From an uncultured Bacilli bacterium (lineage in GTDB: Bacteria > Bacillota_I > Bacilli_A > RF39 > UBA660): a stretch of DNA of 64,000 bases. The stretch spans positions 30,970 through 94,969 of the forward strand of contig CAKPGT010000003.1 in the NCBI GenBank assembly GCA_934155185.1, in the 5' to 3' direction. This document shows positions 10,129 to 59,501 of the stretch, in pieces (positions within the stretch are counted from its first letter, which is position 1; each line of letters begins with the position of its first letter). The translations under genes and the position numbers were made by a program. The notes under the pieces were generated by a model. That model was not told the origin of the DNA. It did no database searches and was given only the letters and a program-made list of their open reading frames with translations.

Positions 10129-10200
10129 AAGAGGCTTTTAAAAGCTTCTTTTTTCTATTTAATGGTGATATAATAAAATTGTAGTAGAAGAGGTAATAGT

Positions 10201-11394: not shown

Positions 11395-11488
11395 TTTAAA
11401 TATTAGGCGCGTTACCTAAAAAAAATTATATTTAGTTTGTTAAAATACCAAAAATAGTATAAAATATAGATGGATAAAGGTGATAGGT

Positions 11489-12868: not shown

Positions 12869-12894
12869 AGAAGCTTATATTAACTTAAGCTTCT
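12869..12894. terminator. bidirectional hairpin between the convergent VanY-like and HIT genes
   Basis: AGAAGCTTA (12869-12877) pairs with TAAGCTTCT (12886-12894). The right arm overlaps the 3' end of the HIT CDS. Confidence 0.5.
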
Positions 12895-13283: not shown

Positions 13284-13409
13284 CTTTCCACCTCTATTTA
13301 AATATTAACATAAAAACGCATTTTACACTATCTTTTAAGTTTTTTTCTTGATATATAGTTAAAAATAAAGTAAACTATACTTATGTAATTACTTATATTG
13401 TAGGTTTGA

Positions 13410-13832: not shown

Positions 13833-13903
13833 TGGTATTATACAAGAAATATAATATTTATATTTTTTTAATTGCATAAAAAAATAACTATCGTTATTGA
13901 TAG

Positions 13904-27952: not shown

Positions 27953-27973
27953 TTAAGGAAAGGAAGATAACTT

Positions 27974-36204: not shown

Positions 36205-36308
36205 ATCTATCACCATGTTAATTATATATTAAAAGCAAACAATATCCAACAATATTTTTAAAAATAATTAATATAATAGACGGTTAAACAAAAGGAGAGA
36301 TAGGTATT

Positions 36309-37199
36309 ATGAACTATTATAATGAAATAAAGGAAGAACTAGTAAATAATGAAGTATATAAAAAGGTAAAGGATTACTCTAAAAATAGAAGTGATTTAAA
36401 AACGTATTATAATGTTGGAAAGTTATTAAATGATGCTGGTAAAAAATATGGTGAGGGTATTATAAAAAAGTATTCTGATAAATTAAGCAGAGACCTAGGT
36501 AAAAAGTATAATGAAAGAACACTTAGAAGATTTAGACAATTTTATAATTTGTTTAGTGAACAAAAATGGACGACAGTGTCGACCAAATTGCTATGGAGTC
36601 ATTATGTTGAATTATTATCAATGGATGATATATGTGAAATTAATTATTACATAAAAATAGCGGAAGAAGAAAATTTATCTGTAAGAAAGTTAAGAGAGCG
36701 AATAAAAAATAATGAATATGAAAGACTAGATGACAAGACTAGGATTAAATTAAGTTCTAAGAAAAAAACGGATGCACATGATTTTATAAAAAATCCTATA
36801 CTTATAAGAAATAAATTTGATACTGATAAACTATCTGAAAAAATGTTAAAGCAAAGTGTGTTAGAAGACCTTTCACATTTTTTAAATGAATTAGGTAGTG
36901 GATATGCATTTATAAGAGAAGAATATCCAATAAAACTAGGTGATAGATATAATTATATAGATATACTTTTGTTTAATTATGTAAATAATAACTTTGCTGT
37001 AGTAGAGCTTAAAATAGGTGAAATAAAAAAAGAACATATAGGGCAGGTACAAACATATATGAATTATATTGATAAAAATTTAAAAACAATTAATCAAAAT
37101 GACACCATAGGAATTATTATCTGTAAAAAAGGTAATAGCTTTATAATGCAGTATGTTACAAACAAAAATATATACGAAAGAGAGTATGAACTAATATAA
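36309..37199 (+). CDS. DUF1016 / YhcG-like PD-(D/E)XK nuclease, paralogue 2
   Basis: TLRRFRQFY, LLWSHYVELL, ELGSGYAFIREEY, YIDILLFN and AVVELK motifs. Confidence 0.85.
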   Translation: MNYYNEIKEELVNNEVYKKVKDYSKNRSDLKTYYNVGKLLNDAGKKYGEGIIKKYSDKLSRDLGKKYNERTLRRFRQFYNLFSEQKWTTVSTKLLWSHYVELLSMDDICEINYYIKIAEEENLSVRKLRERIKNNEYERLDDKTRIKLSSKKKTDAHDFIKNPILIRNKFDTDKLSEKMLKQSVLEDLSHFLNELGSGYAFIREEYPIKLGDRYNYIDILLFNYVNNNFAVVELKIGEIKKEHIGQVQTYMNYIDKNLKTINQNDTIGIIICKKGNSFIMQYVTNKNIYEREYELI

Positions 37200-37214
37200 T
37201 TTAAAACACTAATT

Positions 37215-37400
37215 ATTATAATGAAATAAGAGTGAACTAATAAATAATGTGGTATATAAAAAAGTATTTTGACAAGTTAACTAAAGAGTTAGGGAAAGGC
37301 TATACATTTATTTCATTTGTAAGAATGAGACAATTTTTTAGTATTTCTAAAAAAATTGCGACACTGTCGCAACTATTATTGTTGAGTCATTATACTGAAT
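37215..37400 (+). pseudogene. degenerate partial duplicate of the 5' part of the DUF1016 gene
   Basis: DNA ATTATAATGAAATAAGAGTGAACTAATAAATAATGTGGTATATAAAAAAGTA parallels the start of 36309. Translated fragments KELGKGYTFISFVRMRQFF and LLLSHYTEF, with stops. Confidence 0.55.
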
Positions 37401-37502
37401 TTATAATATAGATAAAATTAATTGTTCCATAAAAACGGCAAAAAAGAAAATTTATTTGCAAGAAAAAAATATAGGGAGCAATTCACCTATATTTTAATTT
37501 TT

Positions 37503-43239: not shown

Positions 43240-45216
43240 ATGAATGAGAATAATATAGGAAACACTGATGAACTTGGCTTTGAAAATGCTAATTTGGACC
43301 AAAACATAAATGAATCTGTTCAAGGAGATGTTAATATTTTAGGCGATTCTTCAATTAATACTAATTTAGACAGCACAGTAAATGATGCTAATACGCTTTC
43401 ATTAGAAAATCAGAAGTATAATGATACTTATAATGAACCACGAACTGAGTTACTCCCAGACGAAATAGGTAGAGTAAAAGATATTAGCGGTGATAAGGTA
43501 ATAGTAGGTATTACATCTGATTTAGCATATTCTAAAAATTTAGTTGATCATCATGTAGTATTTCAAGTAGAAAATGATCAGAAAATAGTTGGAACATTAA
43601 CTAGCATAAACAAGGAAACAGCAGAGATTCAACTAATTGGTGAGATAAAAGCAGATAGGTTTATAGCAGGAGTTTTAATTAAACCTCAAATTGGTAGTGT
43701 ATGTCAAATTGCAAGTGAAAACGAAACTAGTTTAATAGTAATTGATGGTAGTAATAATTCTACAAGTAAAGTCTTAGTAGGACAAATGCCTCTTTATAAT
43801 AATGCACCAGCGTATGTACCAACTAACACATTTTTCAGTAATCACTTTGCAATTTTTGGAAATACTGGTTCAGGTAAGTCTTGCGGTGTTGCAAGATTAC
43901 TTCAAAACGTATTTTTTAATACGAATCAAATTCCAAGAAATGCATGTATGTTTATATTTGATGCTTATGGTGAATACGAAAACGCATTATCTATTCAAAA
44001 TAGTAGTATATTATTTAAAAGGTATTCTACCAACGTAAGGACTAATTCAAATACGTTAATAAAGTTGCCACTTTGGCTTCTTGATATAGATGATTTTGCG
44101 TTATTACTTGATGTTGATGACCCATCGCAACTTCCAATAATAGAAAAGGCACTTAGACTAGTTACAGTATTTTCAGGACCAGAAGAAGAAACAAAGATAT
44201 ATAAAAATGATATAATTGCTAAAGCAATACTTGAGGTTTTATATTCAGGCGGTGCGGCATCACAAATACATGACCAAATATTTGCAATATTAACATCATT
44301 TAATACATCTGATCTAAACTTAGAATCTTTAATTGTACAACCGGGATATACGAGAACATTAAGACAATGCCTAATAATTGATAAAGAAGGTAAAATAGGT
44401 GAGATACAGTTAGTATCAGAATTTATAAAGAGATTTATTAATGATAATTTAAGACTAGAATTACCTGATGGAACTATACCATTTACACTTGAAAATCTAA
44501 AAGAAGCATTTGATTTTGCTTTAATATCTGAGGGTATACTAAAGAGTGATAAAATATATGATAAAGCTAATGTTTTAAAAGTAAGATTAGATTCTCTAAT
44601 AAAGAGTGAATACTCAGAATATTTTAAAGTTGATAAATATATTGACAAAGTTAATTTTATTAAGCAACTAATTACTGCGCCTAATGGTGGAAGAACACAA
44701 ATAATAAATATAAATATTAGTTACCTAGATGATAGATTAGCTAAAACTATATGTAAAATATATTCAAAATTATTGTTTGATTTTACATCTAAACTTAGAG
44801 TAAGGGGATCGTTTCCTATTCACTTAATATTAGAAGAAGCTCATCGTTATGTACAAAATGATGATGATGTAAAAATATTTGGATATAATATATTTGATAG
44901 AATTGCAAAAGAGGGAAGAAAGTATGGTGTTATACTTGGATTAATATCACAAAGACCATCTGAATTATCTGAAACTACAATGTCTCAGTGTTCTAATTTC
45001 TTAATTTTCAAAATGCAGCATCCTTATGATGTTAAGTTTATTAGGGAAATGGTGCCTTACATAACAGACGAAATAGTTGAAAAAATGAAAGGTTTGCAGC
45101 CAGGTACTTGCGTAGCCTTTGGCTCAGCATTTAAACTTCCAACTATTATAAAATTAGAAATGCCAAATCCGCAACCAATGAGTCAAAACGTTGACATATC
45201 AAGATTGTGGTATTAA
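43240..45216 (+). CDS. HerA/DUF87-type (HerA-FtsK superfamily) ATPase with Asn/Asp-rich N-terminal tail
   Basis: Barrel-like N-domain (GRVKDISGDKVIVG...), Walker A FGNTGSGKS, Walker B/sensor HLILEEAHRY and GLISQRPSELSETTMSQCSNFLIFKM. Confidence 0.8.
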   Translation: MNENNIGNTDELGFENANLDQNINESVQGDVNILGDSSINTNLDSTVNDANTLSLENQKYNDTYNEPRTELLPDEIGRVKDISGDKVIVGITSDLAYSKNLVDHHVVFQVENDQKIVGTLTSINKETAEIQLIGEIKADRFIAGVLIKPQIGSVCQIASENETSLIVIDGSNNSTSKVLVGQMPLYNNAPAYVPTNTFFSNHFAIFGNTGSGKSCGVARLLQNVFFNTNQIPRNACMFIFDAYGEYENALSIQNSSILFKRYSTNVRTNSNTLIKLPLWLLDIDDFALLLDVDDPSQLPIIEKALRLVTVFSGPEEETKIYKNDIIAKAILEVLYSGGAASQIHDQIFAILTSFNTSDLNLESLIVQPGYTRTLRQCLIIDKEGKIGEIQLVSEFIKRFINDNLRLELPDGTIPFTLENLKEAFDFALISEGILKSDKIYDKANVLKVRLDSLIKSEYSEYFKVDKYIDKVNFIKQLITAPNGGRTQIININISYLDDRLAKTICKIYSKLLFDFTSKLRVRGSFPIHLILEEAHRYVQNDDDVKIFGYNIFDRIAKEGRKYGVILGLISQRPSELSETTMSQCSNFLIFKMQHPYDVKFIREMVPYITDEIVEKMKGLQPGTCVAFGSAFKLPTIIKLEMPNPQPMSQNVDISRLWY

Positions 45217-45235
45217 TTAAATAAAAATGTATTAT

Positions 45236-45272
45236 AAAAACCTTTTCCATAGTTAATGTGGTTAGGTTTTTT
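45236..45272 (+). terminator. probable intrinsic terminator between the HerA-like gene and the T7SS block
   Basis: AAAAACCT / AGGTTTTT outer stem plus CCATA/TGTGG inner stem, with a T-rich tail. Confidence 0.5.
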
Positions 45273-45382
45273 ATTTACGTTTTTTATTTGCAATAATTGA
45301 CTAAAGCTTGTTAAAAATGCTATTATATAGATAGTAAAAGATAGTAGATGATTCTTTTACATAGTAATGAGGAGGCATATAC

Positions 45383-45637
45383 ATGTATTCTAATAAACTT
45401 TTAATATCTGTTGAAGTGCCGTCGATAGAGCAAAATTTTAACTTATTTATTCCAATAAATAAAAAACTTGGGACTATAAAGAAGTATATTACTGATAGTA
45501 TTTTTGAACTATCAGGAAAAATACTAGAACAAAAAAAATACTCTTTTTTCGACATTGATACTGGGGTTAAATATGGAAGTAATGTATATGTAAAAGACAG
45601 CGGAATAAAAAACGGGGCAAGAATAATTATGATTTAA
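45383..45637 (+). CDS. esaB: YukD/EsaB-like ubiquitin-fold T7SS protein
   Basis: 84 aa with a pattern of alternating beta-strand residues, ending NGARIIMI. SD GAGGAGG upstream. Immediately precedes the WXG100 genes. Confidence 0.7.
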   Translation: MYSNKLLISVEVPSIEQNFNLFIPINKKLGTIKKYITDSIFELSGKILEQKKYSFFDIDTGVKYGSNVYVKDSGIKNGARIIMI

Positions 45638-45650
45638 GGAGGTGAAAAAA

Positions 45651-45932
45651 ATGGCAGATTTAAAAATTAATTATGCTAATACAAGAAGTGCAGGTAACAC
45701 TGTTAAACAAAAATCATCAGAGTTTTCTGATTTATTAAAGGCAATTCATGAACAAAATGAAGAATTAAAATCTCACTGGCAAGGTGCTGATGCGGATAGC
45801 TATACAAAAAAAATATCAGAACAAGAACAAGTTATGAAAAACCTAAAATCAGCAATGGATGAAATGGGTGAGTATTTAGTTAAAGTTGCTAATGCTTATG
45901 AAGAAGCAATGGAAAGTAACAAAATAAATTAA
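45651..45932 (+). CDS. esxA: WXG100-family protein (EsxA-like)
   Basis: 93-aa helical hairpin with a central W-x-G (SHWQGADADSY). SD AGGAGGTGA precedes ATG 45651. Confidence 0.85.
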   Translation: MADLKINYANTRSAGNTVKQKSSEFSDLLKAIHEQNEELKSHWQGADADSYTKKISEQEQVMKNLKSAMDEMGEYLVKVANAYEEAMESNKIN

Positions 45933-45953
45933 TATTGATAAGGAGGATTACAT

Positions 45954-46247
45954 ATGGGAACAGAATTTTCTGGTTTATCATACGCGCAAATAAGAGGGAT
46001 AGCTGCAACTTTGAAGTCAAAAGCTACCTCTATGCAAGGAATACTAAATGAAGTTAAAACAGAGTTTGATAAAATAGGTGGAGATGACACTTGGAGTGGA
46101 ACATCTGCAGGAGCAGCAAAAGAACAATTTGATGCACTTTCAGCAAAATTTCCAGAATTTTATGAAGCAATAACTTCTTGCTCTCAGTATCTTGAGAGAG
46201 TAGTTCAAAGCTATGAAGCTGTTGATGCTAAAATTAAAGGAATATAG
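45954..46247 (+). CDS. WXG100-family protein (second paralogue)
   Basis: 97 aa with a central W-x-G (DDTWSGTSAGAA). SD AGGAGG upstream. Confidence 0.85.
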   Translation: MGTEFSGLSYAQIRGIAATLKSKATSMQGILNEVKTEFDKIGGDDTWSGTSAGAAKEQFDALSAKFPEFYEAITSCSQYLERVVQSYEAVDAKIKGI

Positions 46248-46334
46248 TTATTAGAGCACTAAAGCTCTTTGACAAAAAAGTGTTATTAAAATAGCATTTT
46301 TTTGTGAAACAGATTTAGAAAGGCAAGATGATAC

Positions 46335-46619
46335 ATGAAGATAAAGGCTTCAAGTGAACTGGTAAAAAGTGCAAGTTTAATTAATGATCGTTTTAGTGAA
46401 ATATATAAGAGTATTGATACGATTCAGAACTATATTGGGCAGACAAATAAGGTTTGGAAAGGAACAGACGCTGATTCTTTTACAAAGAAATATAATGAAG
46501 AAGTAATACCTAATTTAAGAAAATTTAAAAGTTCTATGGAAAAATATGTGACGTTTTTGTCAAAGGTTTATCCTGTTTATAAAGCACTGGACGAATATTA
46601 TGACAAACCCATAAATTGA
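46335..46619 (+). CDS. WXG100-like small helical protein (possible LXG-effector targeting factor)
   Basis: 94 aa with a central VWKGTDADSF. Confidence 0.6.
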   Translation: MKIKASSELVKSASLINDRFSEIYKSIDTIQNYIGQTNKVWKGTDADSFTKKYNEEVIPNLRKFKSSMEKYVTFLSKVYPVYKALDEYYDKPIN

Positions 46620-46633
46620 TTGGAGTGATTATT

Positions 46634-46921
46634 ATGTATGCAAATTATGATGGAATGAATGAGCTACGTGAACGTTTAGACTCTGAAATAGATAAGATGG
46701 TTAAAAATATGAAAGATGCTAAAGATTTAGTTTCAAAGCTTGATAATAATGATTACTGGGATGGGAATGGATTTAACAGTTATAATGAAAAATTTAATAA
46801 ACTAGCTATGAATTTTAATTCATTTTGTAATGATATCCAAAAGCTTAATAATAACATCAAAGTTGCAATTTCAAATTATCAGGAAATAGATAAAAAAGTT
46901 GAAGGAAGCATAGGTACATAA
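46634..46921 (+). CDS. WXG100-like small helical protein
   Basis: 95 aa from ATG 46634, after SD TGGAGTGA. Central YWDGNGFNSY. Confidence 0.6.
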   Translation: MYANYDGMNELRERLDSEIDKMVKNMKDAKDLVSKLDNNDYWDGNGFNSYNEKFNKLAMNFNSFCNDIQKLNNNIKVAISNYQEIDKKVEGSIGT

Positions 46922-46923
46922 TT

Positions 46924-47352
46924 ATGGCATATGAAAATATAGATGTTAATAAGTTGAAAACTGCACTAAGTACAATAAATAATATTAATAATTCAAAGAT
47001 AGACAACTTAGTACAAAAAATGGACTCGGAGCAGTGGCAAAGTCCTGTAAGAAGCAGACTTCAAACTGCACTTTCAAACATATCAAAGCAATATGCAAGT
47101 TTAAAAAAAGATATAGATACTTATAAAGAAATTGCAAATCATATTGAAAAATATAATCGTGCTAAAAGCGATTATGATAGATTAAATGACGATGTGAATT
47201 ATTACAATAATAAATTAAATAGTTTAGATGAAAATTCTAGCTTTTATGAATATAATAAAAGTTATTTTAAGTCGAAGCTAGATAATAATGTTTTGGCTAG
47301 AAATAATGCTAGAGCTAGTATGAATGAAATAGAAAAAAAGATTAATTTGTGA
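46924..47352 (+). CDS. small helical protein with a degenerate WxG-like turn
   Basis: 142 aa with EQWQSPVRSR at the turn position. Coiled-coil-like composition. Tightly packed with its neighbours. Confidence 0.45.
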   Translation: MAYENIDVNKLKTALSTINNINNSKIDNLVQKMDSEQWQSPVRSRLQTALSNISKQYASLKKDIDTYKEIANHIEKYNRAKSDYDRLNDDVNYYNNKLNSLDENSSFYEYNKSYFKSKLDNNVLARNNARASMNEIEKKINL

Positions 47353-47362
47353 GGAGAAAAAG

Positions 47363-47671
47363 ATGAATAATAATGTTAATTTAGGAAAATATTTGCCAAT
47401 AGGAACTGTAGTTCTTTTGAGAGGTGGAAAAAAAAGACTTATGATTACGGGCTTTTGTTCTTTAGCTGAGAATGATAGTTCAAAATTATACGATTATAGT
47501 GGTTGTTTATATCCAGAAGGAGTAATTGAAAGTAAAAGCATGGCTTTGTTTAATCATAATCAAATAGAAAAAATATTCTATTTAGGATACTCTGATTTAG
47601 AAGAAAAAAACTTTAAGAAGGAATTAGTTACAGAGGTTGCAAAACTAGTTCAAGATCAAGAAAATAACTAA
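47363..47671 (+). CDS. DUF4176-family protein (T7SSb effector chaperone-like)
   Basis: LPIGTVVLLRGGKKRLMITGF ... YDYSGCLYPEG ... FNHNQIEKIFYLGY matches the DUF4176 pattern. Confidence 0.75.
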   Translation: MNNNVNLGKYLPIGTVVLLRGGKKRLMITGFCSLAENDSSKLYDYSGCLYPEGVIESKSMALFNHNQIEKIFYLGYSDLEEKNFKKELVTEVAKLVQDQENN

Positions 47672-47704
47672 GAATATAAATAATAACAAGGAGGTGAAAT
47701 TTTT

Positions 47705-50700
47705 ATGGGACTGTATAATTTAACTAGAATAGAGGGATGGTACGAAGATTTCACCGACTTAAAAAATCGATTTAACAATGACTATTATCAAGATTTTAAG
47801 AGTAGTTATTTAAGAAAGTGCCCTAATCAATTAGTGTCAAAAATGTATTTAAATTTGCAAGAAAAGTATTTTAAAATACGTGAATTGTATAAAAAAGTTG
47901 ATACAGTTTGGAGTGAATATATAGTTGATTTAGAAAACACAGATAATAGATTAGCTGGGCAAAGTGGAAGTGTTAGTGCGTCAACTGTATCGTCATTATT
48001 GTCTAAAATGCCACAACTAAATGATACTCAGTATAGCTTATCTAATTCTGGAGGCCAAAGCAAAAACGCAGTACTTGAAATTGGGGAAAAAATTCTTTCA
48101 ACGGGTGCTGTTGTTACAACTACCGTGTATAGTGGTTTATTTAAATTAAGAGAAAAATTTCAAGATGGTGCATTATGGCTTGTAGCAACTGTTACTGCTC
48201 CGGTTGTTTCATTGTTTAATAAAGAAGCTGGGGAAAAATATAAAGAAGCAATGATGGATGCAATTGCTGTAGATAGGGTTGCAGAGGCAAATAAATATTT
48301 TTATGAAAATACTAAAGTTGGAAAATACATTAATGAAAAATCTTACTTAAAGTATGATAGTGAATTTGCAAAGAAAATGCAAAATTATTCAGAAAAAGGC
48401 TTTGAAATTGCAGCAGCAACTGCATTAACCGTAGCAACTGGTGGACTTGCTGCACCTGTATCTGCTCTACTGGTTGTGGGTACTGGCTTTGCTATTGGAG
48501 CAGGTGAAAAAGCAGAGGAAAATTATCAGCAAGAAGATAGAAGTTTTTATGGGGACGCTGGTGAAATTGCATTTGCAGGTTTAATCAAAGGAATTGAATT
48601 CTATGGCACTGGAAAGACGGGACAGGGAATTATTACTGCAGCCAAAGCAGTTGCAAGTTCTGGAGGTATAAAATCTATATCTACGGTTGCAAAACAATTA
48701 TTTACTAAAAGTGGAAATAAAAAAATCACTATGAAATCACTATTTAAAAAAGCGTCAGAAACGTTAAAAACAGCTTTATCAGATGTGGATACACATATGG
48801 ATTCGCTTAGCGCAGCAGCGGATAATATAACTTATAGTAAAGAAGAGGGTATAAAGGTTAATTGGAAAGGTTTTGCAAAAAAAACTGTTAAATATTTCAT
48901 TGCCAATTGTTGTTCAGCATTTGTTAGCAATCTATATGCACCACCAAAGACAAAAGCAGATAATGGTATAGAGAAATTTAAAGGTACAAAAAGTACATCA
49001 GCTGACGATTTAGAATCATTAAAAAAAGAATATAATGAGTTACTAGCCAAATCAAAAGAAAAATGGTTTATAGATGCAAAAGATGCTATGGATAATGGCT
49101 ATGCTTGGAAGTTAGATGATATTAAATCAGCAGATGATATTGCAAAAAGAATGAATGAAATAGAAAAGGCCCTTGGCATAGATAGCCCAAAAGTTAATGT
49201 AAAAGGAATAGAATCAGGAAGTACTCATAAATCTGATTTAGAACAACTAAAAAAAGAATATAATGAGTTATTAGCTAAGTCAAAAGAAAATTGGTTTATA
49301 GATGCAAAGAATGCTATGGATAATGGCTATGCTTGGAAATTAGATGATATTAAATCAGCAGATGACATCTCAAAAAGAATGGATGAAATAGAAAGAATTT
49401 TGTATAGTGATTCAAAAAATTTGACTAGTTCAGCTTACCCTGAAGCATTTAGTAGAAAATCATTAAGTAATATGACAAATTATGAGGTACATAAGTCATT
49501 AAGTGACATGGATATTGTTATTAAAAATATAGAGTCAAAATATCCGGGTGAGGGAGTACGTCGCTTAGAAGAATATTTAAAAACTGGTAATATAAATATG
49601 ATTACATCTCTTGGTGGTTCTAGAAACTATGTAGCTCAATTTGAACCTGATTTTATTGAATATTATCTTAAAAAAAGATATAATATTGATGTAAAAGTTA
49701 GTTCATCATTCTATGATTTAAATCAAACAGTACGTAGTGGTACATTAAAAAGTAGTAGTAATGAAGAATTATATAGTTTCTTTTCAAATAACGGAAGTTC
49801 ATTAAATGAAACATATGGTGCTGATCAAGGTGGAATAGATAAGCTATGTGATTATTATTTAAATGGAACAAGGTATTCTTGCTCTGAAGCCAAGGAGATA
49901 GCGAATTCGTATAAAGAGAGAGGATTGCCTTTACCAAAATTTAAAAAAGAGGCTGCAGTAGAAGAATACTTTACATTAAAAAATAAGTTAGTTTCAAAGG
50001 GATTAACTAGTGCTCAAGCCTCTGTTATATTATCAAGTTTTGATGATGTTGGCGCGTGTACTTATGCTGGAAAAGCTAATTCAATCTTTTTTAAGTTTTC
50101 AGATAATCCAGAACTATTTGAGAAAAAATTTGGCTTTCCAATGTATAAAATAGATAGTAATGGGCGTAAGGTTCTTAATTCAAATGAACTTTTATTAGAT
50201 ATGTATATGCATATAAATGATATATCGAATGGTGGAATGTTATTTACGAAAGTTAACGATTCATATGTTTTAAATTGCAGTGATAAAATTGATGTATTTG
50301 GCAGAAAAATGCTTGATACCGAGCATCAGGTTTATCTTTCTAATTTTGGCGGTTCAAATGACTATGCTTTAAATAATTATTTAAAATCTAAAAATTTAAA
50401 GTGGGATTCTTATAATTTGATTTCAAATCCTTCTGGTAAAAAATTAAACACGTCGGAATTAGTTGACTACGTTAATGCAATCTCTTCCAGTATTGAAGAT
50501 GGAAAGGCAGTACAAATGAACATCTTCTCTTCTGACAATAATATTACCATGCATTCAACAAATCCGGGTTCCTATAGTAGTAAATCAACAGATTCATGGA
50601 TAAAAGAAATAGTAAATGAAAATGGCAAAATTGAAAAGAAACACAGTGGTCATGCAGTAATGATTACCGGAATAAAAAATGATGGTTTTACAGTTAGTTC

Positions 50701-50797
50701 TTGGGGTCAGGAATATAAGATTTTGTATAATGATTTAATAAATGGAGGAGAATTTAACATAACAATAGATAATGTTATTGATCCTGTAGTTAGTTAG
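47705..50797 (+). CDS. large putative T7SS substrate/toxin with C-terminal Cys-His (papain-fold-like) domain
   Basis: Occupies the position of an LXG-type effector. Helical N-terminus, Gly/Ala-rich hydrophobic core and 2 x 76-aa repeat. C-terminal GACTYAG ... HSGHAVMITG ... SSWGQEY. Confidence 0.55.
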   Translation: MGLYNLTRIEGWYEDFTDLKNRFNNDYYQDFKSSYLRKCPNQLVSKMYLNLQEKYFKIRELYKKVDTVWSEYIVDLENTDNRLAGQSGSVSASTVSSLLSKMPQLNDTQYSLSNSGGQSKNAVLEIGEKILSTGAVVTTTVYSGLFKLREKFQDGALWLVATVTAPVVSLFNKEAGEKYKEAMMDAIAVDRVAEANKYFYENTKVGKYINEKSYLKYDSEFAKKMQNYSEKGFEIAAATALTVATGGLAAPVSALLVVGTGFAIGAGEKAEENYQQEDRSFYGDAGEIAFAGLIKGIEFYGTGKTGQGIITAAKAVASSGGIKSISTVAKQLFTKSGNKKITMKSLFKKASETLKTALSDVDTHMDSLSAAADNITYSKEEGIKVNWKGFAKKTVKYFIANCCSAFVSNLYAPPKTKADNGIEKFKGTKSTSADDLESLKKEYNELLAKSKEKWFIDAKDAMDNGYAWKLDDIKSADDIAKRMNEIEKALGIDSPKVNVKGIESGSTHKSDLEQLKKEYNELLAKSKENWFIDAKNAMDNGYAWKLDDIKSADDISKRMDEIERILYSDSKNLTSSAYPEAFSRKSLSNMTNYEVHKSLSDMDIVIKNIESKYPGEGVRRLEEYLKTGNINMITSLGGSRNYVAQFEPDFIEYYLKKRYNIDVKVSSSFYDLNQTVRSGTLKSSSNEELYSFFSNNGSSLNETYGADQGGIDKLCDYYLNGTRYSCSEAKEIANSYKERGLPLPKFKKEAAVEEYFTLKNKLVSKGLTSAQASVILSSFDDVGACTYAGKANSIFFKFSDNPELFEKKFGFPMYKIDSNGRKVLNSNELLLDMYMHINDISNGGMLFTKVNDSYVLNCSDKIDVFGRKMLDTEHQVYLSNFGGSNDYALNNYLKSKNLKWDSYNLISNPSGKKLNTSELVDYVNAISSSIEDGKAVQMNIFSSDNNITMHSTNPGSYSSKSTDSWIKEIVNENGKIEKKHSGHAVMITGIKNDGFTVSSWGQEYKILYNDLINGGEFNITIDNVIDPVVS
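49010..49402 (+). repeat. in-frame tandem duplication (228-bp period, about 1.7 copies) inside the effector gene
   Basis: LESLKKEYNELLAKSKEKWFIDAKDAMDNGYAWKLDDIKSADDIAKRMNEIEKAL versus LEQLKKEYNELLAKSKENWFIDAKNAMDNGYAWKLDDIKSADDISKRMDEIERIL. Unit starts are at 49010 and 49238. Confidence 0.9.
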
Positions 50798-50805
50798 GAG
50801 GTATT

Positions 50806-51363
50806 ATGAGAGAAATTGATAATTATAAGTATATGTTTTTTAAAGAAGTGTATAACACTATAAATCTTAAAAGTGTGGAACAGAAAATGTTAGGTGATAA
50901 TATAAAGCCACTTGAAGTAATAAAAGATGATAAATATGATGTAATTTCAAACTACTTTTTCTTGCTAAATGTTTTTAACATTGAGGCCTTGTCTAAGGAA
51001 CAGTTACAAGATTTTTATACGTACTTTTCTAAAGATATTAATTCTTTAAATGAACAAGAACTCCAAAAAACAAGAGAATTTATAAATGAAACTTATTCTA
51101 CGGTATTGTTTCCTAAGACTGATAGTAAATACGTATATTATGGTCCAATTAATGATGACTATTTATGCCCAAGAGATGCTATTGTAATAGGATTATACTA
51201 TGATGCTTTTGGGGAATATGGCGATTTTGAACTAGAAAATAAACTAGCAGATATTATTAATTATATTCAGTTCTCATTGGATAAAAAGAATTATAGTAAA
51301 ATTGCTGTTATACCATTTAATCAAATTACATTAGAAAATAGAATTAGTAGTTTAAATAAATAG
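50806..51363 (+). CDS. hypothetical protein; candidate cognate immunity protein
   Basis: 185 aa with no TM segment. Starts 9 nt after the effector stop and has its own SD (AGGAGG). Confidence 0.4.
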   Translation: MREIDNYKYMFFKEVYNTINLKSVEQKMLGDNIKPLEVIKDDKYDVISNYFFLLNVFNIEALSKEQLQDFYTYFSKDINSLNEQELQKTREFINETYSTVLFPKTDSKYVYYGPINDDYLCPRDAIVIGLYYDAFGEYGDFELENKLADIINYIQFSLDKKNYSKIAVIPFNQITLENRISSLNK

Positions 51364-51383
51364 CATTATAAGGAGTGAATAAA

Positions 51384-54300
51384 ATGAGGGTTTCATTAAT
51401 AAAAAAAGATAGAATAAGGCATGTTAACATACCAGATGTACCATCTGGTAACTTTTGGGTTACTGACTATGACGAAAACGGTAAAGAAGTTAATTTACTA
51501 AACATAAAGTCAGAAAATGGCAAGTGGAAATTAATTAGTAATTCAGAGTTTTACTGCTTACTAAACAATAACTATGTTGATAGTTTAGATTTAAAAAATT
51601 ATTGTTTTTATTCTATAAGAAAAGCTTCAAGTGATGAAACAATGCTAATATATTCATCTAGTTCATGCGATAGTAAAAAGGTTGAATACCTAATTAATCA
51701 AAATAATAATCCTTTAATTTCAATTGGTAGTGCTGTTAACTGTAATATTTCATTTCCATTCTTAGATGAGGTTACAGCTAATCTTATGTTTGAAAGAGGA
51801 AAGTATGTCTTACAAGTAATGTCTCCTAAAGTTGGGGTATATATAAATAATTTAAGAGTATATGATAAAAAGGTACTAGAATATGGCGATATATTATTTT
51901 TAAACGGATTAAAAATAGTATTTATGAAATGTGAGGGCAATGATAGATTAATAATATATTATTTCGGGAATAATTTAATTGTAAATGGACTTGCTAGTTC
52001 TACATATGATGATTACGAAGAACCTTTTGAAGAAGCTAAAGAAGATTTGGATATTAAATGGTACAAAGATGAAGACTTTTTTCACAAAACTCCAAGATTT
52101 GTATCTGAAATAAAAGAAAAAGAAATTAAAATAGATGTTCCTCCATCAAAGGAAGAGCAAAATGATATGCCCGTGATATTAACAATAGGGCCAATGCTTA
52201 CTATGAGTATGTCGTCTATGGTTATGGCATTTACATCAATAAGTAATGCAAGAAGTAATGGTGGTTCGTTAGCTTCTGCGATTCCATCTATTGTAATGTC
52301 TTTAGCTATGGTTGCATCTGTATTGCTATGGCCATCTTTAACAAGAAAATTTGAAGATAAAAGAAGACAAAAAAAGGAAAAAGAAAGAATAGATAAGTAT
52401 TCCAAATATATAGATTCTAGAAGAAAGATGATACTAGATGAGCTTGAAAGTCAAACTAAGTCTTTAAAAGGTAATTATCCAAGTCTTTTAGAATGTAATA
52501 GAATAATTTTAAACAAGGAGCCTGTTTTATGGCAAAGAAAAATTGAAGATGAAGATTTCTTAAAAGTTAGTTTAGGGTATGGAAGCTACGATATGAAGCT
52601 TAAAATTTCTTATCCAGAAGAACAGTTTTCAATGATAGAAGATGAGCTTAAGGATTTGGCTGATAAGTTAAGCAGGGAGCCAAAAGTTTTGCAAAATGTT
52701 CCGATTCCTTATTCTTTTTTAGAAAATAATATCTCTGCTATTGTAGGACAATATAATGATAGAAGTGAGTACTTAAAAAAGATATTATTTCAAATAATTA
52801 CGTTTCATAGCTATGTTGATTTGAAAATAGTTATTTTAACAGATAATGATAAAAAAAGTACATGGGAGAATATAAAGAATTTACCATATTGCTTTACGGA
52901 TGATAGAAGTCTTAGATTATTTGCTTCAAAAAATGAAGAGTATAGCATTGTATGTTCTTATCTTGAAAAAATATTTAGTTTAAGAAAGGAAGCTAGTAAA
53001 ACTGATGTTAATCCTCATATATACGATAAAATATATTTAATTATTACTGATTCATTTAAATCAGTAAGGAATCAAGACTTTATAGATAATCTTTTAAAGG
53101 AAAAGAATAATTATGGATTTAGTTTTATTGTTTCAAATGGTAAAATATCAACTCTTCCAGAACAGTGCAAGACATTTATAAATGTCGGATTAAATGGTGG
53201 ATATTTGTCTAAAAATATTGTAAATTCACAGAATCAAAATTTTATAACAGATTTAAATAGTGGAATAAACTACAATGAATGTTACAAAATACTTTGTAAC
53301 ATACCAATTGAAACAAATGATTCATCATCTTCTAAAATACCAGATAAAGTTGGATTTTTGGAGATGTATGATGTTGGTAAAGTAGAACAACTAAATTCAT
53401 CTAACAGATGGGAAAAGAGTAATCCAATGAATACTTTATCAGCACCTGTTGGTTATGGAAAAAACAGTGAAATCCAGTATATTGACTTACATGAAAAGTA
53501 TCATGGTCCGCATGGTTTAATAGCAGGTATGACAGGTTCTGGTAAATCAGAATTTATAATTACTTATATACTATCTTTAGCAGTTAATTATAGTCCACTT
53601 GAAGTTCAATTTATATTAATAGACTATAAAGGCGGTGGACTTGCTGGAGCATTTGAAAACTCTAACTCCGGAAAGAAATTACCTCACTTAGTAGGTACTA
53701 TTACTAACTTAGATGCGAGTGAAATTAAAAGAAGTATTTCTAGTATAGAAAGTGAGCTTAAAAGAAGGCAGCGTTTGTTTAATATAGCTAGGGATAAGAC
53801 AGGCGAAAGTACAGTTGATATATATAAATATCAGCGATTTTATAGAGAAGGTAGGGTTGATGAACCGGTATCTCATTTATTTATAATATCTGATGAGTTC
53901 GCTGAGTTAAAAAATCAACAACCTGAATTCATGGATCAGCTTATATCTACGGCACGTATAGGACGTTCATTAGGTGTGCATTTAATTTTAGCAACACAAA
54001 AGCCAAGTGGTGTAGTAGACCCTCAAATATGGTCAAATACAAGGTTTAGAGTTTGCTTAAGAGTTCAAGATAAGAGTGATTCTAATGAAGTAATTAAATG
54101 CCCAGATGCTGCATTTTTAAAACAAACAGGTAGATTTTACTTTCAAGTTGGTTATAATGAAGTATTTACTTTAGGACAAGCTGCTTGGGCAGGAGAAAAA
54201 TATGTACCAAAAGAAAAAACCAAAAAACCAGTAGATACGACAATAAAGTTTATTAATAATGTTGGTTATGTAATAAAAAAGGTAGCAACTAGAAAAATTC

Positions 54301-56039
54301 AAACTAATCAAGATGAAAAGAAATATGGGGAAGAATTATTAAATGTTGTAAATTATTTATCTGATATTGCTACAGAATTAAAAATAAAGGCAAAGCCATT
54401 GTGGCTTGATAAGATTCCAAGTTTTATTAAGATAAGAGATTTAATTAAAAAGTATGATTATAAATCTAATGTTCCAATAATTGATATACCTGTAGGTGAA
54501 TTTGATATACCTCAGCAGCAAAGACAAAGTATACTTACAGTTCCTATAAGTAATGGTGGAAACGTTTTACTATATGGAACTACCGGTTCTGGTAAAGAAA
54601 ACTTTATTATGACACTTATATATTCTTCAATGCTATTATATACACCAGAAGAGATTAATTTTTATATAATGGATTTTGGTGCAGAGGTACTTAAAGTATT
54701 TAAAGACTCACATTATGTCGGTGATATAGTTCAAATTGATGAAGAGGAAAAAATTAAGAATCTATATAAGTTAATAAATAATATGATAGATGAAAGAAAG
54801 GAGATGCTTTCATCTTATGGTGGAAGTTTCTTAAGTTACTTAAAAAATGGTGGTAAAAAGTTGCCAAGTATTGTAGTAGTTCTTAATAATTATGAAGCTT
54901 ATTATGATACTTACGAAGAACTTGATGATACGTTTAATATACTAACTAGAGAATGTGCTAAGTATGGTATATATTTCATAATTACTTTAAATACTCCTAA
55001 TGGAATGCGCTTTAAATTACGTCAGAACTTTTCACAAATATACTGTTTGCAACAAAATAATGAGGATGATTACATAAGTATTCTTGGTAATACTGGAAAA
55101 AGTTACCCATCTAAATTATTTGGTAGAGGTATAATTAAAAGAGATAATGTATATGAATTTCAAACAGCTTCTATAGATGTTCAAGAGAAATTAAATGAAA
55201 GTATACAACTTGAAATATCAAACTCAAATAATAAAACTAATTTTGTTGCTAAAAAGATACCTATACTTCCTAAGGTTGTAGATTATGAATATATTAAAGA
55301 TAGTATAGACTATAATGATGAAGAAGTTATAATTGGTGTTGAAAAACAAAGCTTAGAAGTTTGCAAGTATAATTTTAGAAGAGATTTAATAAACGTAATT
55401 TCTGCTAATGATAGTGATATGATGTCTGATTTTGTTAATTCTTTCATAAATCAAATTAAAATAAATAAGAAATTCCAGACTATGGTTATTGATGCTTCAG
55501 AATTAAGAATTGATGATGATACTAAAGAGAAAGTTGCTTATGAGGAAAATAATTACAATGAGGTATTTGAAAGAATATTAAAGTATGAGAATGATTGCTA
55601 TGATGTATATAGAAATAATAATTATAATAATTTAATATTCCGTAATCAAAAACCACTTATTGTAGTTATAAACGGTATAGATAGTTTTGTTTCTAAATTA
55701 TCTGATGAAAATAAACTAAACGTATCTGACTTCTTTACAAAAGCAAAAGATTTAAACATAATTAATTTTGTTTTAATAGATAGTGTAAGCGGTATAAAGA
55801 AAGTTGAGTACGAATCATGGTTTAAGGAAGGGTTTAATCCTAATGATGGTATATTTATTGGTGATGGTATAAATGACCAATATACAATGAAAGTATCTGT
55901 TAGAACACAAGAAATAAAGGAAACTATAAGTGATGATTTTTGCTTTGTACTATTAAGGGGTAAACCAGTACTTGTTAAGTACATTAGTAGTTTTAATCCT
56001 ATTTTAGATGATATGATAGAGATTCCTAGTGAAAAGTAA
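51384..56039 (+). CDS. essC: T7SS FtsK/SpoIIIE-family ATPase EssC/YukBA
   Basis: FHA-like N-terminal modules and two TM helices (MPVILTIGPMLTMSM.., IPSIVMSLAMVASVLLW). ATPase modules have P-loops GMTGSGKSEF and GTTGSGKENF, with Walker B IISDEF. The third module lacks a P-loop. Start is ATG 51384, after SD AAGGAG. Confidence 0.9.
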   Translation: MRVSLIKKDRIRHVNIPDVPSGNFWVTDYDENGKEVNLLNIKSENGKWKLISNSEFYCLLNNNYVDSLDLKNYCFYSIRKASSDETMLIYSSSSCDSKKVEYLINQNNNPLISIGSAVNCNISFPFLDEVTANLMFERGKYVLQVMSPKVGVYINNLRVYDKKVLEYGDILFLNGLKIVFMKCEGNDRLIIYYFGNNLIVNGLASSTYDDYEEPFEEAKEDLDIKWYKDEDFFHKTPRFVSEIKEKEIKIDVPPSKEEQNDMPVILTIGPMLTMSMSSMVMAFTSISNARSNGGSLASAIPSIVMSLAMVASVLLWPSLTRKFEDKRRQKKEKERIDKYSKYIDSRRKMILDELESQTKSLKGNYPSLLECNRIILNKEPVLWQRKIEDEDFLKVSLGYGSYDMKLKISYPEEQFSMIEDELKDLADKLSREPKVLQNVPIPYSFLENNISAIVGQYNDRSEYLKKILFQIITFHSYVDLKIVILTDNDKKSTWENIKNLPYCFTDDRSLRLFASKNEEYSIVCSYLEKIFSLRKEASKTDVNPHIYDKIYLIITDSFKSVRNQDFIDNLLKEKNNYGFSFIVSNGKISTLPEQCKTFINVGLNGGYLSKNIVNSQNQNFITDLNSGINYNECYKILCNIPIETNDSSSSKIPDKVGFLEMYDVGKVEQLNSSNRWEKSNPMNTLSAPVGYGKNSEIQYIDLHEKYHGPHGLIAGMTGSGKSEFIITYILSLAVNYSPLEVQFILIDYKGGGLAGAFENSNSGKKLPHLVGTITNLDASEIKRSISSIESELKRRQRLFNIARDKTGESTVDIYKYQRFYREGRVDEPVSHLFIISDEFAELKNQQPEFMDQLISTARIGRSLGVHLILATQKPSGVVDPQIWSNTRFRVCLRVQDKSDSNEVIKCPDAAFLKQTGRFYFQVGYNEVFTLGQAAWAGEKYVPKEKTKKPVDTTIKFINNVGYVIKKVATRKIQTNQDEKKYGEELLNVVNYLSDIATELKIKAKPLWLDKIPSFIKIRDLIKKYDYKSNVPIIDIPVGEFDIPQQQRQSILTVPISNGGNVLLYGTTGSGKENFIMTLIYSSMLLYTPEEINFYIMDFGAEVLKVFKDSHYVGDIVQIDEEEKIKNLYKLINNMIDERKEMLSSYGGSFLSYLKNGGKKLPSIVVVLNNYEAYYDTYEELDDTFNILTRECAKYGIYFIITLNTPNGMRFKLRQNFSQIYCLQQNNEDDYISILGNTGKSYPSKLFGRGIIKRDNVYEFQTASIDVQEKLNESIQLEISNSNNKTNFVAKKIPILPKVVDYEYIKDSIDYNDEEVIIGVEKQSLEVCKYNFRRDLINVISANDSDMMSDFVNSFINQIKINKKFQTMVIDASELRIDDDTKEKVAYEENNYNEVFERILKYENDCYDVYRNNNYNNLIFRNQKPLIVVINGIDSFVSKLSDENKLNVSDFFTKAKDLNIINFVLIDSVSGIKKVEYESWFKEGFNPNDGIFIGDGINDQYTMKVSVRTQEIKETISDDFCFVLLRGKPVLVKYISSFNPILDDMIEIPSEK

Positions 56040-56115
56040 AGGCTTATTTTGTCTTTACTTTTTACTTTAATCATTTAATTTATTATGATAAAATATAAAT
56101 ATAACAGGAGGAATT

Positions 56116-56574
56116 ATGAAAGAGCAAACTAAAAAGAAAATACTTTTAATAATATTATGCACGTTAACACTTTTGGTTTTATATGTAGCTATAAGACTAA
56201 ACTCAAATAGAAAGCATAGTTTATTGTTAAATTCGGATATTAAAGGATACTTAAGTGAGATAAAGTATGAAGAAATAGAATCTCATGTAAAGGAAAGGCC
56301 TAATGTAATCATATATGTTTCAAATAGCAGTCAAAATGAGTCAATTAAGTTTGAAAGAATGTTTAAAGATATAATTAAAAAATATAATTTAGAAAATGAA
56401 GTAATCTACATAAATATAAATGAAACAACAATTATTGATCCGATATATCAAAATGCCCCAGAACTTGTATTTTATAAAGATGGTACAATTAGTGATATTA
56501 TTGATTGCAGTACATTAAAAAGCAAGAAAAGTATTATAAATGAGTTAAAAGAAAGAAGTGTTATAGATGATTAA
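56116..56574 (+). CDS. N-terminally anchored membrane protein, possibly a thioredoxin-like fold without CxxC
   Basis: One TM helix (ILLIILCTLTLLVLYVAI) followed by an alpha/beta-like ~110 aa. The stop overlaps the trmL start. Confidence 0.4.
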   Translation: MKEQTKKKILLIILCTLTLLVLYVAIRLNSNRKHSLLLNSDIKGYLSEIKYEEIESHVKERPNVIIYVSNSSQNESIKFERMFKDIIKKYNLENEVIYININETTIIDPIYQNAPELVFYKDGTISDIIDCSTLKSKKSIINELKERSVIDD

Positions 56575-57097
56575 TGTTGTATTATATGAACCAGAAATAC
56601 CTGGAAATACAGGCAATATTATGCGTACATGTGCAGCTACAGATACGCATCTTCATTTAATTAAACCACTTGGTTTTTCATTAGACGAAAGCTATATTAA
56701 AAGAAGCGGGGCTAACTATATTAATGATTGTAATTATACTTTGTATGAAAACTGGGATGACTTTAAAAGCAAAAATAAAGGAACATATTATTACTTAACA
56801 AGATATGGTAAAAAAGCACATACTTCTTTTGATTATAGTAATAAGGATGAAAATATCTATCTTGTATTTGGGAGGGAAAGTAGTGGATTACCTCTTGAAA
56901 TATTAAAAGATGATTTAGATCATTGCCTTAGAATTCCTATGACAAATAAAGTAAGAGCACTTAATTTATCTAATTGTGCTGCTATTATGGTTTATGAGGT
57001 ACTAAGACAACAAGATTATAGAGATTTATTAAGAAAAGAACCATTTAAGGGTGAAGACTATATAGAAACAGGTATAGATATTAGTAAGCAAGACTAA
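56567..57097 (+). CDS. trmL: tRNA (cytidine/uridine(34)-2'-O)-methyltransferase TrmL (SpoU family)
   Basis: VVLYEPEIPGNTGNIMRTC, LVFGRESSGLP and NLSNCAAIMVYE SPOUT motifs. Confidence 0.9.
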   Translation: MINVVLYEPEIPGNTGNIMRTCAATDTHLHLIKPLGFSLDESYIKRSGANYINDCNYTLYENWDDFKSKNKGTYYYLTRYGKKAHTSFDYSNKDENIYLVFGRESSGLPLEILKDDLDHCLRIPMTNKVRALNLSNCAAIMVYEVLRQQDYRDLLRKEPFKGEDYIETGIDISKQD

Positions 57098-58220: not shown

Positions 58221-58371
58221 AAATACATTCTAGCATTTTTTTAATATTTCTACAAGCCCTAGCTGTATATGCAAAAGAGCATTATAAATTAAAATTTTGA
58301 AAAACGTATATAAATTTATATGATTTTATAGTATAATTTTGGTATAAAAAATTAATGATAGGGGGAAGGAT

Positions 58372-59399
58372 ATGAATAGTAAATTAATTAGTAATGATAA
58401 AGAATTTAATTATGTTTTTGATAATATTAAGGATTTAATAATAAATAGTAGAAATAAGGTATACCAAGCTGTTAATACAGAAATGCTTAATCTATATTGG
58501 AATATAGGAAAAATAATAATGGAAATACAGCAGGGTGATGAAAGAGCAAGTTATGGAGATGCTGTACTTGATAGATTATCTCAAAAATTAACTGATGAAT
58601 TTGGCAAGGGATTTTCTTCAAGAAATTTAAGAACTATGAGAAAATTCTATTTGATGTATCCAATTTGGAAGACAGTGTCTTCCAAATTAAGTTGGTCACA
58701 TTATTTAGAGCTTATTAAAATAGATGAAGAACCTAAAAGAAAGTTTTATTTAAATGAATGTATAAATTCAAGATGGAGTGTTAGAGAACTGCAAAGACAA
58801 AGAACATCTTTACTTTATGAAAGATTAACTATGTCAGCTGATAAAGAAAAAGTACTTGAATTATCTGAAAAAGGGCAAGTTTTAAATACGAGTAAAGACT
58901 TAGTAAAAGATCCTTTCGTTTTAGAATTTCTGGATATAAAAGAAAATACAAATTATCTTGAAAGTGACTTAGAAAAAACTTATTAGAACATTTAAAAGAA
59001 TTTTTGCTTGAACTTGGAAAAGGGTTTAGTTTTATTGGAAGTCAAGTTAGAATTACATTAGGAGGAGAGCATTTTTATCCAGATTTAGTTTTCTATAATA
59101 GACTATCAAAATGCTTTGTTATAATTGATTTAAAGATTGGCAAAGTTACGCACCAAGATATTGGTCAAATGCAAATGTATGTTAATTACTATGATAGAGA
59201 AATTAAAAGTGAAGATGAAAATAAAACAATAGGAATACTACTATCAACTAATAAAAGTGAAACAATTGTAAAATATACTTTACCGCTTGATAATAATACA
59301 ATATTCTCATCAGAATATAAGTTACATATGCCAACAGAGCAAGAATTAATTAGTGTTGTTGAAGAAGAAAAGAAAAATTTTGAATTGAATGAAGGATAA
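58372..59399 (+). pseudogene. DUF1016 / YhcG-like PD-(D/E)XK nuclease, paralogue 3, frameshifted in an A6 tract
   Basis: Two ORFs (58372..58986 and 59004..59399) together reconstruct the family. Adding one A to the A6 run at 58973..58978 restores ...DLEKNLLEHLKEFLLELGKGFSFIG. Confidence 0.8.
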
Positions 59400-59501
59400 T
59401 AAAATCAATTTAAATTTGTGTGCAATAAACTATACTTTACGTAAAGTGTAGTTTTTTTTGATATTATTTTTATATAATTATATGGACTAATATTTATTAA
59501 T

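Follow-up and report, generated by a model that had tools for sequence, protein, structure and literature searches.

Introduction

EssB, EsaA and EssA are the peripheral crown and the wall-spanning parts of the T7SS (type VII secretion system) in Bacillus and Staphylococcus, where the system is of the b type (T7SSb). Textbook Gram-positive systems depend on all three membrane proteins: EssB/YukC, a pseudokinase with a TM helix and an extracellular part whose gene normally lies in the locus; EsaA/YueB, polytopic, about 1000 aa long and with a large extracellular domain; and the small EssA/YueC. In B. subtilis, the central channel of about 13 Å has been modelled as a hexamer of the ATPase YukB with YukC dimers as the outer crown; YukD is held firmly between YukB's FHA and DUF domains, and the FHA domains bind YukC and also YukD (bioRxiv 10.1101/2025.01.24.634720). 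How the complete T7SSb apparatus is built, and by which route effectors cross the wall, are open questions (PMC13492133). The variants T7SSc to T7SSj, described from RefSeq by Garrett, Higginson and Palmer in 2024, share TsxA, TsxB and TsxC, lack EssA, EssB and EsaA, and each has accessories of its own (PMC11217815). Here we describe a T7SS locus in a stretch of 64,000 nucleotides from an uncultured Bacilli bacterium of the order RF39 (GenBank assembly GCA_934155185.1, contig CAKPGT010000003.1, positions 30,970 to 94,969 of the forward strand). This whole stretch is called the window, and all coordinates are positions in it. An earlier note, made from the letters of this DNA, had described at 45383-56039 a reduced T7SSb-like locus with EssC, YukD and WXG100 proteins and no recognisable EssB, EsaA or EssA. 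We read the locus as a self-contained, streamlined T7SS and toxin-delivery island of an RF39 gut bacterium that has lost these three proteins, and give this reading a probability of roughly 60%. Which T7SS parts form the channel and which are accessory is the question that such a reduced system addresses.

Results

No EssB, EsaA or EssA near EssC in the window and related loci

Absence from the window was judged with Pfam and NCBIfam profiles, and the related loci were additionally screened by hydropathy and topology. It turned out that no open reading frame (ORF) between 39826 and 58042 matches the YukC/EssB, EsaA/YueB or EssA/YueC families (EssA PF10661 included) at E<=0.1. This profile check had been proposed in the earlier note, and its statement that the block holds no recognisable EssB, EsaA or EssA stands. 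Another ten window ORFs, either unannotated or coding for membrane proteins, gave no match to the YukC, EssA or EsaA/YueB families at E<=0.01, and the other ORFs of the window were read by eye as housekeeping genes (FtsY, Ffh, PFOR, ProS, MurF, PFL). The only ORF of about 1000 aa, at 47705-50797, contains one hydrophobic segment.

Relatives were sought by scanning one genome per GTDB species, which gave more than 570 stretches encoding EssC relatives. The best 80 of these show 40-73% EssC identity, and the locus set comprised 79 non-redundant loci with an EssC ORF, likewise at 40-73% identity. In each relative, we examined 10 kb on either side of essC, called the ORFs in every locus and clustered them by blastp. 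The best 80 relatives all come from gut or rumen metagenome-assembled genomes labelled as uncultured Bacilli, Erysipelotrichaceae, Tenericutes or Mycoplasma sp. CAG:877, and one EssC relative lies on a complete chromosome of 1.49 Mb. The labels on the genomes behind the 79 loci are uncultured Bacilli, Mycoplasma sp. CAG:877, Candidatus Aphodocola and Candidatus Faecisoma; the two Candidatus genera have been placed in the GTDB order RF39, with Ca. Aphodocola excrementigallinarum in the family CAG-433 (PMC8035907).

In these 79 loci, no protein with an EssB/YukC-like topology (300-560 aa with a transmembrane (TM) helix in the middle) is recurrent, and no recurrent candidate for a polytopic EsaA/YueB-like protein of about 1000 aa was found by size and topology. 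Long polytopic ORFs close to essC are limited in this clade to an FtsX permease, an LtaS-type protein and a 695-aa singleton in L016, the last of which was not scanned against profiles. The Pfam scan of the 39 recurrent neighbour clusters gave housekeeping proteins only (ribosomal proteins, RpoA, MurD, FtsW, iPGM and the like) and no YukC, EssA or EsaA. In other loci, four unannotated ORFs directly precede yukD, and each is an unrelated singleton.

A YukD homologue adjoins EssC in 66 of the 79 loci, and small helical proteins stand beside EssC nearly everywhere. The smallest loci have the order yukD-wxg-wxg-essC (L022) or consist of essC, yukD and genes for proteins of 69 and 72 aa. Across subclades, the island is found in differing chromosomal contexts with unrelated flanking genes. 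EssC, YukD and small helical proteins are the only gene set conserved around essC in the clade. Comparison with related genomes had also been suggested in the earlier note. With the same short gene set at 79 EssC loci, with YukD and small helical proteins as the only recurrent neighbours and with no YukC, EssA or EsaA among the 39 clusters, it points to a variant architecture and not to a chance local gap.

The limits of the island were read from two syntenic contigs, L085 (syntenic with the window over 33143-63339) and L087 (from 37502). In blastn, their alignment with the window stops at 45222 and 45216 and resumes at 56055 and 56054, respectively, and 11-26 bp replace the island between herA and the promoter region with the gene of a 152-aa protein. 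The missing block is 10.8 kb in size, and yukD through essC is its entire content. By these junctions, HerA and the 152-aa protein are flanks, and the T7SS block forms a discrete, self-contained island that is present or absent as a whole. Because both contigs lack exactly this block, nothing outside yukD-essC travels with the system.

Composition of the island

All eleven ORFs of the island are intact, lie on the + strand and are tightly packed. They belong to a run of ORFs in one direction (43240-57097), and the G+C content of the window is low, about 27%. The promoter and terminator scan was no better than shuffled sequences (93 sites against 92.6 expected), and TTGACT-18-TATTAT at 45297-45326 is a candidate site only. 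The features are as follows.

45217-56054: T7SS island, a block that the window has and the syntenic contigs L085 and L087 lack
45383-45637, + strand: YukD/EsaB-like ubiquitin-fold protein, 84 aa (AlphaFold2 model, Foldseek, PF08817 in relatives)
45642-45932, + strand: core WXG100 protein 1, with HWQGAD (PF06013, E=3.4e-12; TIGR03930 above cutoff)
45954-46247, + strand: core WXG100 protein 2, with TWSGTS (PF06013, E=3.8e-13)
46335-46619, + strand: Lap-like small helical partner, 94 aa, with VWKGTD and C-terminal YKALD (sub-threshold WXG100/ESAT6 matches)
46616-46921, + strand: Lap-like small helical partner, 95-101 aa, with YWDGNG and C-terminal YQEID (PF06013 sub-threshold)
46924-47352, + strand: third helical accessory protein, 142 aa (weak matches to helical families only)
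47363-47671, + strand: DUF4176 protein, toxin chaperone class (PF13780, E=3e-26)
47705-50797, + strand: polymorphic T7SS toxin, 1030 aa (shared N-terminus, swapped C-termini)
50806-51363, + strand: probable cognate immunity protein, 185 aa (co-occurrence with the toxin C-terminus)
51384-56039, + strand: EssC, 1551 aa from ATG (TIGR03928, match to YukB 9qks_G, TM segments, Walker motifs)

EssC motor ATPase

The 1551-aa ORF named EssC in the earlier note proved to be a true Firmicutes-type EssC: it scores 1025 bits against the NCBIfam profile TIGR03928 (T7_EssCb_Firm), whose cutoff is 778. Pfam FtsK_SpoIIIE (PF01580) matches it in two stretches (E=1e-41). The closest solved structure is B. subtilis YukB (9qks_G, E=5e-119), and the nearest named relative is the EssC of Candidatus Aphodocola excrementigallinarum (72% identity). 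The protein is built of an FHA region, two TM helices and the DUF, D1, D2 and D3 modules, the last three being FtsK-SpoIIIE ATPase modules. Hydropathy and motif reading agree with the two TM helices, two P-loops and P-loop-less third module described before: hydrophobic segments lie at 267-285 and 299-317, the Walker A motifs are GMTGSGKS at 715 (D1) and GTTGSGKE at 1065 (D2), and D3 has no Walker A motif. The D1 motif is invariant in the EssC family members compared. Degeneracy of D3 is normal in T7SSb (PMC13492133). The FHA-like modules of the earlier description hold for the family, since PF00498 is precomputed for most homologues; the match on the window copy itself is marginal (E=0.098).

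The D2 Walker A motif (54576-54599, EssC residues 1065-1072) has the form GxxGxGKE, in which Glu replaces the usual Ser/Thr. This Glu is invariant across 12 EssC family members of 49-100% identity, which suggests that nucleotide binding is retained and catalysis altered. The EssC start on record is the ATG at 51384, and exactly this product is encoded on a 139.9-kb ENA metagenome contig. The GTG at 51375 was rejected as a start, as no such product is on record.

YukD-like protein and WXG100 pair

The 84-aa ORF has no Pfam match of its own, and a profile of its family found nothing among PDB sequences; a fold search was required. PF08817 (YukD) matches 9 of the 36 family members, with a best E=2e-5. 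The AlphaFold2 model is a ubiquitin beta-grasp (pLDDT 94). Foldseek ranked the EccD5 Ubl domain of ESX-5 first (7np7_D2, E=9e-6); another match was chain A from the T7b core unit of B. subtilis (9qks_A, TMq 0.74). The protein ends in ...ARIIMI, without a C-terminal Gly-Gly. It is YukD-like, in keeping with the yukD/esaB-like gene assigned by the earlier note.

The two WXG100 genes of that note both pass PF06013. The C-terminus of the first protein, AYEEAME, is an inexact YxxxD/E, and the second protein carries the export-type motif YEAVD at its C-terminus. We compared the positional orthologues in 24 loci with the order yukD-wxg-wxg, scoring the motif in the last 30 residues. YxxxD/E was kept by 18 of the 24 second proteins and by 3 of the 24 first ones. 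A one-sided YxxxD/E is typical of heterodimeric WXG100 pairs. The two proteins are an asymmetric, non-identical pair, presumably a heterodimer.

Cargo module

Between the WXG100 pair and essC lie the genes of one cargo module. The three extra WxG-like helical ORFs and the DUF4176-like ORF of the earlier note are all present. The 94-aa protein groups with the WXG family in blastp; the 95-101-aa protein falls just below the PF06013 cutoff (E=1e-5, 26.1 bits, cutoff 27.3). Both are confined to loci with a large toxin. The family of the 142-aa protein (cluster c10) occurs in 17 loci, in each of them with the WXG-like genes on one side and the DUF4176 or toxin genes on the other. DUF4176 proteins stabilise LXG toxins ahead of export (PMC12482557).

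The 1030-aa protein has no Pfam match. It consists of a helical targeting region (residues 1 to about 120), a Gly/Ala-rich hydrophobic module (about 130-330), two repeats of about 75 aa and a variable C-terminal toxin domain (about 600-1030). Its N-terminal 100-520 or so residues recur at the start of many large proteins in the related loci and in the protein database. These proteins differ at the C-terminus, which in some is PF03496 (ADP-ribosyltransferase) or PF14021 (TNT NADase). Its C-terminal 430 or so residues recur in proteins of 1911 and 386 aa in other loci. The 185-aa ORF matched no Pfam or NCBIfam family. Its homologues (cluster c38) are found in L019 and L055, each directly after a protein with the C-terminal domain of the window toxin. 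The shared N-terminus, the swapped C-termini and the co-varying 185-aa gene mark the 1030-aa protein as a polymorphic toxin and the 185-aa protein as its probable cognate immunity partner.

The earlier note had named the hydrophobic core of the 1030-aa protein as a candidate for the missing membrane part. This proposal falls: the region at about 130-330 belongs to the shared toxin N-terminal half (P0235) and is not a machine component. The protein was also rejected as an EsaA analogue, being a polymorphic toxin with a single hydrophobic segment.

None of 24 homologous toxin N-termini matches PF04740 (LXG) at E<=0.1, and a profile of the N-terminus found only generic helical bundles in PDB. As for the C-terminus, a papain-like pattern can be seen by eye (GAC-TY where a helix begins, HSGHAV within a strand, then SSWG). 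The AlphaFold2 model of this region, built on a two-sequence alignment, is poor (pLDDT 51) and gives the pattern no confirmation. Foldseek with this poor model gave nothing below E=0.01, and phmmer of the C-terminus against PDB gave no match. The weak Foldseek matches, which we do not count as evidence, were to the papain folds of Lpg2622, a Josephin-type deubiquitinase and the C39 domain of PCAT1, which agree with the Cys/His/SSWG pattern. Toxins with the same N-terminal half (L010 at 6042-9560; P0230, P0231, P0235) end in HD, PF03496 or PF14021 domains. When seven large toxins were scanned against Pfam, five had no match and a sixth only a sub-threshold one, which points to a pool of uncharacterised toxin domains.

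Variant forms of the locus in RF39

In the subclade with 40-44% EssC identity (L038, L040, L050, L054, L059-L067, L070, L072-L076, L078, L079, L082, L083), the locus takes its smallest form, essC-yukD and two helical proteins of about 70 aa without WxG. Where upstream sequence exists, it adjoins rpsM-rpsK-rpoA-rplQ-ecfA-truA-rplM-rpsI. Three loci (L008, L009, L021) have tandem essC genes, the first at about 10001-14630 and the second followed by a yukD of its own. In these loci, two reduced T7SS that differ in gene order are thus direct neighbours. Cluster c22 (10 members), absent from the window, comprises proteins of 63-85 aa whose N-terminus resembles a zinc ribbon and which have one TM helix at the C-terminus. 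It directly precedes yukD in most of L042, L043, L046, L049, L052, L053, L057 and L084, and could serve that subclade as a small membrane accessory.

Comparison with known T7SS types

The RF39 island is like T7SSb in its Firmicutes-type EssC above the TIGR03928 cutoff, with an FHA region, two TM helices, the DUF module and three ATPase modules of which the last is degenerate. It also shares with T7SSb the free-standing YukD/EsaB ubiquitin-like protein and WXG100 proteins, as well as a cargo layout of helical partners, DUF4176 protein, large polymorphic toxin and immunity gene (PMC13492133, PMC12482557). Unlike T7SSb, it is without EssB/YukC, EsaA/YueB and EssA/YueC, none of which turned up in the island, among those window ORFs that were checked or around essC at the 79 loci. 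T7SSb has a single homodimeric EsxA (PMC11217815), whereas the RF39 core has two non-identical WXG100 proteins with the signal on one. Further differences are the toxin N-terminus outside Pfam LXG and the Glu in place of Ser/Thr in the D2 Walker A motif. The cargo module taken alone is similar to an LXG toxin module, with upstream Lap partners, a DUF4176 chaperone, a variable toxin C-terminus and an adjacent immunity gene (PMC13492133, PMC12482557), and differs from it in the toxin N-terminus, which is not PF04740.

Compared by accessory genes and FHA content, the RF39 gene set matches none of the types T7SSc to T7SSj. The nearest in simplicity is T7SSg of Acetivibrio and Paenibacillus, a 'relatively simple' system with two WXG100 proteins, the ubiquitin-like TsgB and an ATPase; however, its TsgC has no FHA, it encodes the DUF5050 beta-propeller TsgL, and it always stands beside Tad pilus genes (PMC11217815). 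Neither DUF5050 nor Tad families were seen in the Pfam scans of the window ORFs and the 39 clusters. T7SSf and T7SSj of Clostridia are similar to the RF39 system in the N-terminal FHA of the ATPase, which is phylogenetically near T7SSb EssC, and in the YukD-like and WXG100 proteins (Garrett 2024). They differ in carrying a PPM phosphatase, a DUF6382-FHA protein and an AAA+ ATPase (T7SSf) or a kinase and a large Ig-like protein (T7SSj). The island and the conserved neighbours contain no PPM phosphatase, Ser/Thr kinase, DUF6382-FHA protein, AAA+ TsfV or Ig-rich TsxI, as known from T7SSe, T7SSf and T7SSj. The ESX-type T7SSa has, like RF39, two adjacent non-identical WXG100 genes (EsxA/EsxB) with YxxxD/E on one. 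In contrast to T7SSa, the RF39 system has no EccB, EccD, EccE or MycP, and its ATPase is a single FHA-bearing polypeptide.

Our literature searches turned up neither a T7SS subtype past j nor a paper linking a T7SS to RF39 or RFN20. The supplements of Garrett et al. (PMC11217815) contain no metagenome-assembled genome, Mycoplasma or Candidatus entries, and the lineage is absent from them. Thus, variant T7SSs without EssA, EssB and EsaA are known, and a minimal FHA-bearing form with two WXG100 proteins in an uncultured order was not found published.

Proposed mechanism and alternative explanations

The steps below are what we infer from the observed gene content, conservation and island boundaries. 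EssC hexamers, with two TM helices per subunit, would form the membrane channel alone. YukD would be clasped between the FHA and DUF domains of EssC, as in the core unit of B. subtilis, and this clasp may be the reason why the FHA domains and YukD were retained despite the loss of EssB/YukC. Through its single YxxxD signal, the WXG100 heterodimer would address the C-terminal ATPase module. Both this heterodimer and the toxin would dock on the C-terminal ATPase modules, the toxin in a bundle with its helical partners and kept in place by the DUF4176 and immunity proteins. The toxin would then be exported to poison neighbouring bacteria. EssB, EsaA and EssA, that is, the crown and the wall-spanning parts, would have been lost in this reduced-genome lineage. 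The invariant D1 Walker A motif, the polymorphic toxins, the co-varying immunity gene and the YxxxD kept on the second WXG100 protein are signs that the system is in use. A stronger version of this reading, that the EssC hexamer, the YukD clamp and the WXG100 heterodimer suffice to export large polymorphic toxins across a Gram-positive envelope with no substitute anywhere in the genome, and that the system is an eleventh subtype beyond T7SSa to T7SSj, is tentative, and we rate it somewhat below even odds.

Several points weigh against the loss of the three proteins and against toxin export by such a core. Our coverage was about 64 kb of this genome and 10 kb on either side of essC in the relatives, and homologues encoded at a distance from essC would escape it. 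Both the profiles and the crude hydropathy screen could pass over a membrane partner that is strongly divergent or not homologous at all. The core is not uniform, as 7 of the 47 loci with both flanks have no YukD recognisable by blastp clustering. The position of the toxin N-terminus outside Pfam LXG makes the likeness to LXG export positional only. RF39 is uncultured, and the system is known from sequences and models alone.

The first of these points leaves room for an ordinary split T7SSb, a machine like that of Bacillus and Staphylococcus with essB, esaA and essA elsewhere in the genome. An EssC above the T7SSb equivalog cutoff would fit such a machine, as would its FHA domains, which bind YukC in B. 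subtilis; however, they also bind YukD, and their retention needs no EssB. Against it, the 10 kb on either side of essC contained none of the three families at 79 species-level loci, whereas YukD and WXG genes are almost always adjacent, and what is gained or lost is a single 10.8-kb island in which these genes are missing. Given the differing chromosomal sites, the three genes would have parted from essC at the base of a very large clade and stayed apart ever since. We consider a split system unlikely. Rather unlikely as well, in our estimate, are extra lineage-specific membrane parts unrelated to EssB, EsaA and EssA, either encoded outside the island or recruited from housekeeping proteins. 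Each described subtype does have its own accessories beyond TsxA, TsxB and TsxC (PMC11217815), and the single-TM proteins of cluster c22, directly upstream of yukD in 10 loci of one subclade, show that membrane accessories can occur in the clade. On the other hand, the window island holds no such gene, its gaps of 167, 88 and 77 bp are too short to hide one, and no accessory cluster is common to multiple subclades. Finally, the reduced genomes of RF39 (1.49 Mb for the complete genome of a relative) and the absence of the island from some close relatives could speak for a decaying, non-functional T7SSb remnant. This is very improbable in view of eleven intact and tightly packed ORFs, a full-length EssC with conserved motifs and 40-73% identity over about 80 species, and toxin and immunity genes that diversify as in active systems.

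If the stronger version, with no substitute anywhere in the genome, is true, the minimal set would define the irreducible T7 translocon. A widespread system of EssC, YukD and WXG100 proteins only, with diversifying toxin-immunity cargo, would point to EssC as a sufficient translocon, and a four-gene set would be small enough for reconstitution and structural work. RF39, an abundant, uncultured and genome-reduced gut lineage, also appears to invest in contact-type antibacterial weaponry whose toxin domains are mostly unannotated.

Flanking genes and other observations

Two genes outside the island had been proposed in the earlier note as missing parts, and both proposals fail. The upstream gene (43240-45216) encodes a HerA-like DUF87 ATPase. 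It lies outside the indel, and in L085, L087 and L116 herA leads directly to the gene of the 152-aa protein. HerA is near essC in 12 of the 79 loci, distant subclades included. EssC, YukD and WXG genes are all missing from the surrounding 10 kb in 77 of 80 metagenome loci with HerA homologues (45-84% identity). HerA was therefore rejected as an accessory ATPase. Its N-terminal extension of about 75 residues is rich in Asn/Asp. In many metagenome relatives (L088-L164), a conserved pair of genes for proteins of about 173 and 330 aa precedes herA; in the window, herA has no partner gene. Against the NCBIfam anti-phage HerA, the protein scores 166 bits, far under the cutoff of 850. The anchored 152-aa protein (56116), considered as a stand-in for EssA, was rejected too: it is DUF6568/PedC-like (E=9e-13), lies beyond the indel and its gene overlaps trmL by 8 bp.

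Compared with L085, the window has two more extra blocks, 36234-37502 and 58241-59431, each with a gene of a YhcG/DUF1016-type PDDEXK nuclease. The nuclease at 36309-37199 is intact; the other is split into DUF1016_N and YhcG_C ORFs (58372-58986 and 59004-59399). A third similar YhcG/DUF1016-type ORF lies at 24135-25154. These nuclease genes behave like mobile or hitch-hiking insertions. By eye, we also noted CotJB-like, CotJC-like (manganese catalase) and Cys-rich 90-aa ORFs at 27443-28534 and 5553-5825, which may be what is left of spore-coat genes in a lineage with reduced genomes.

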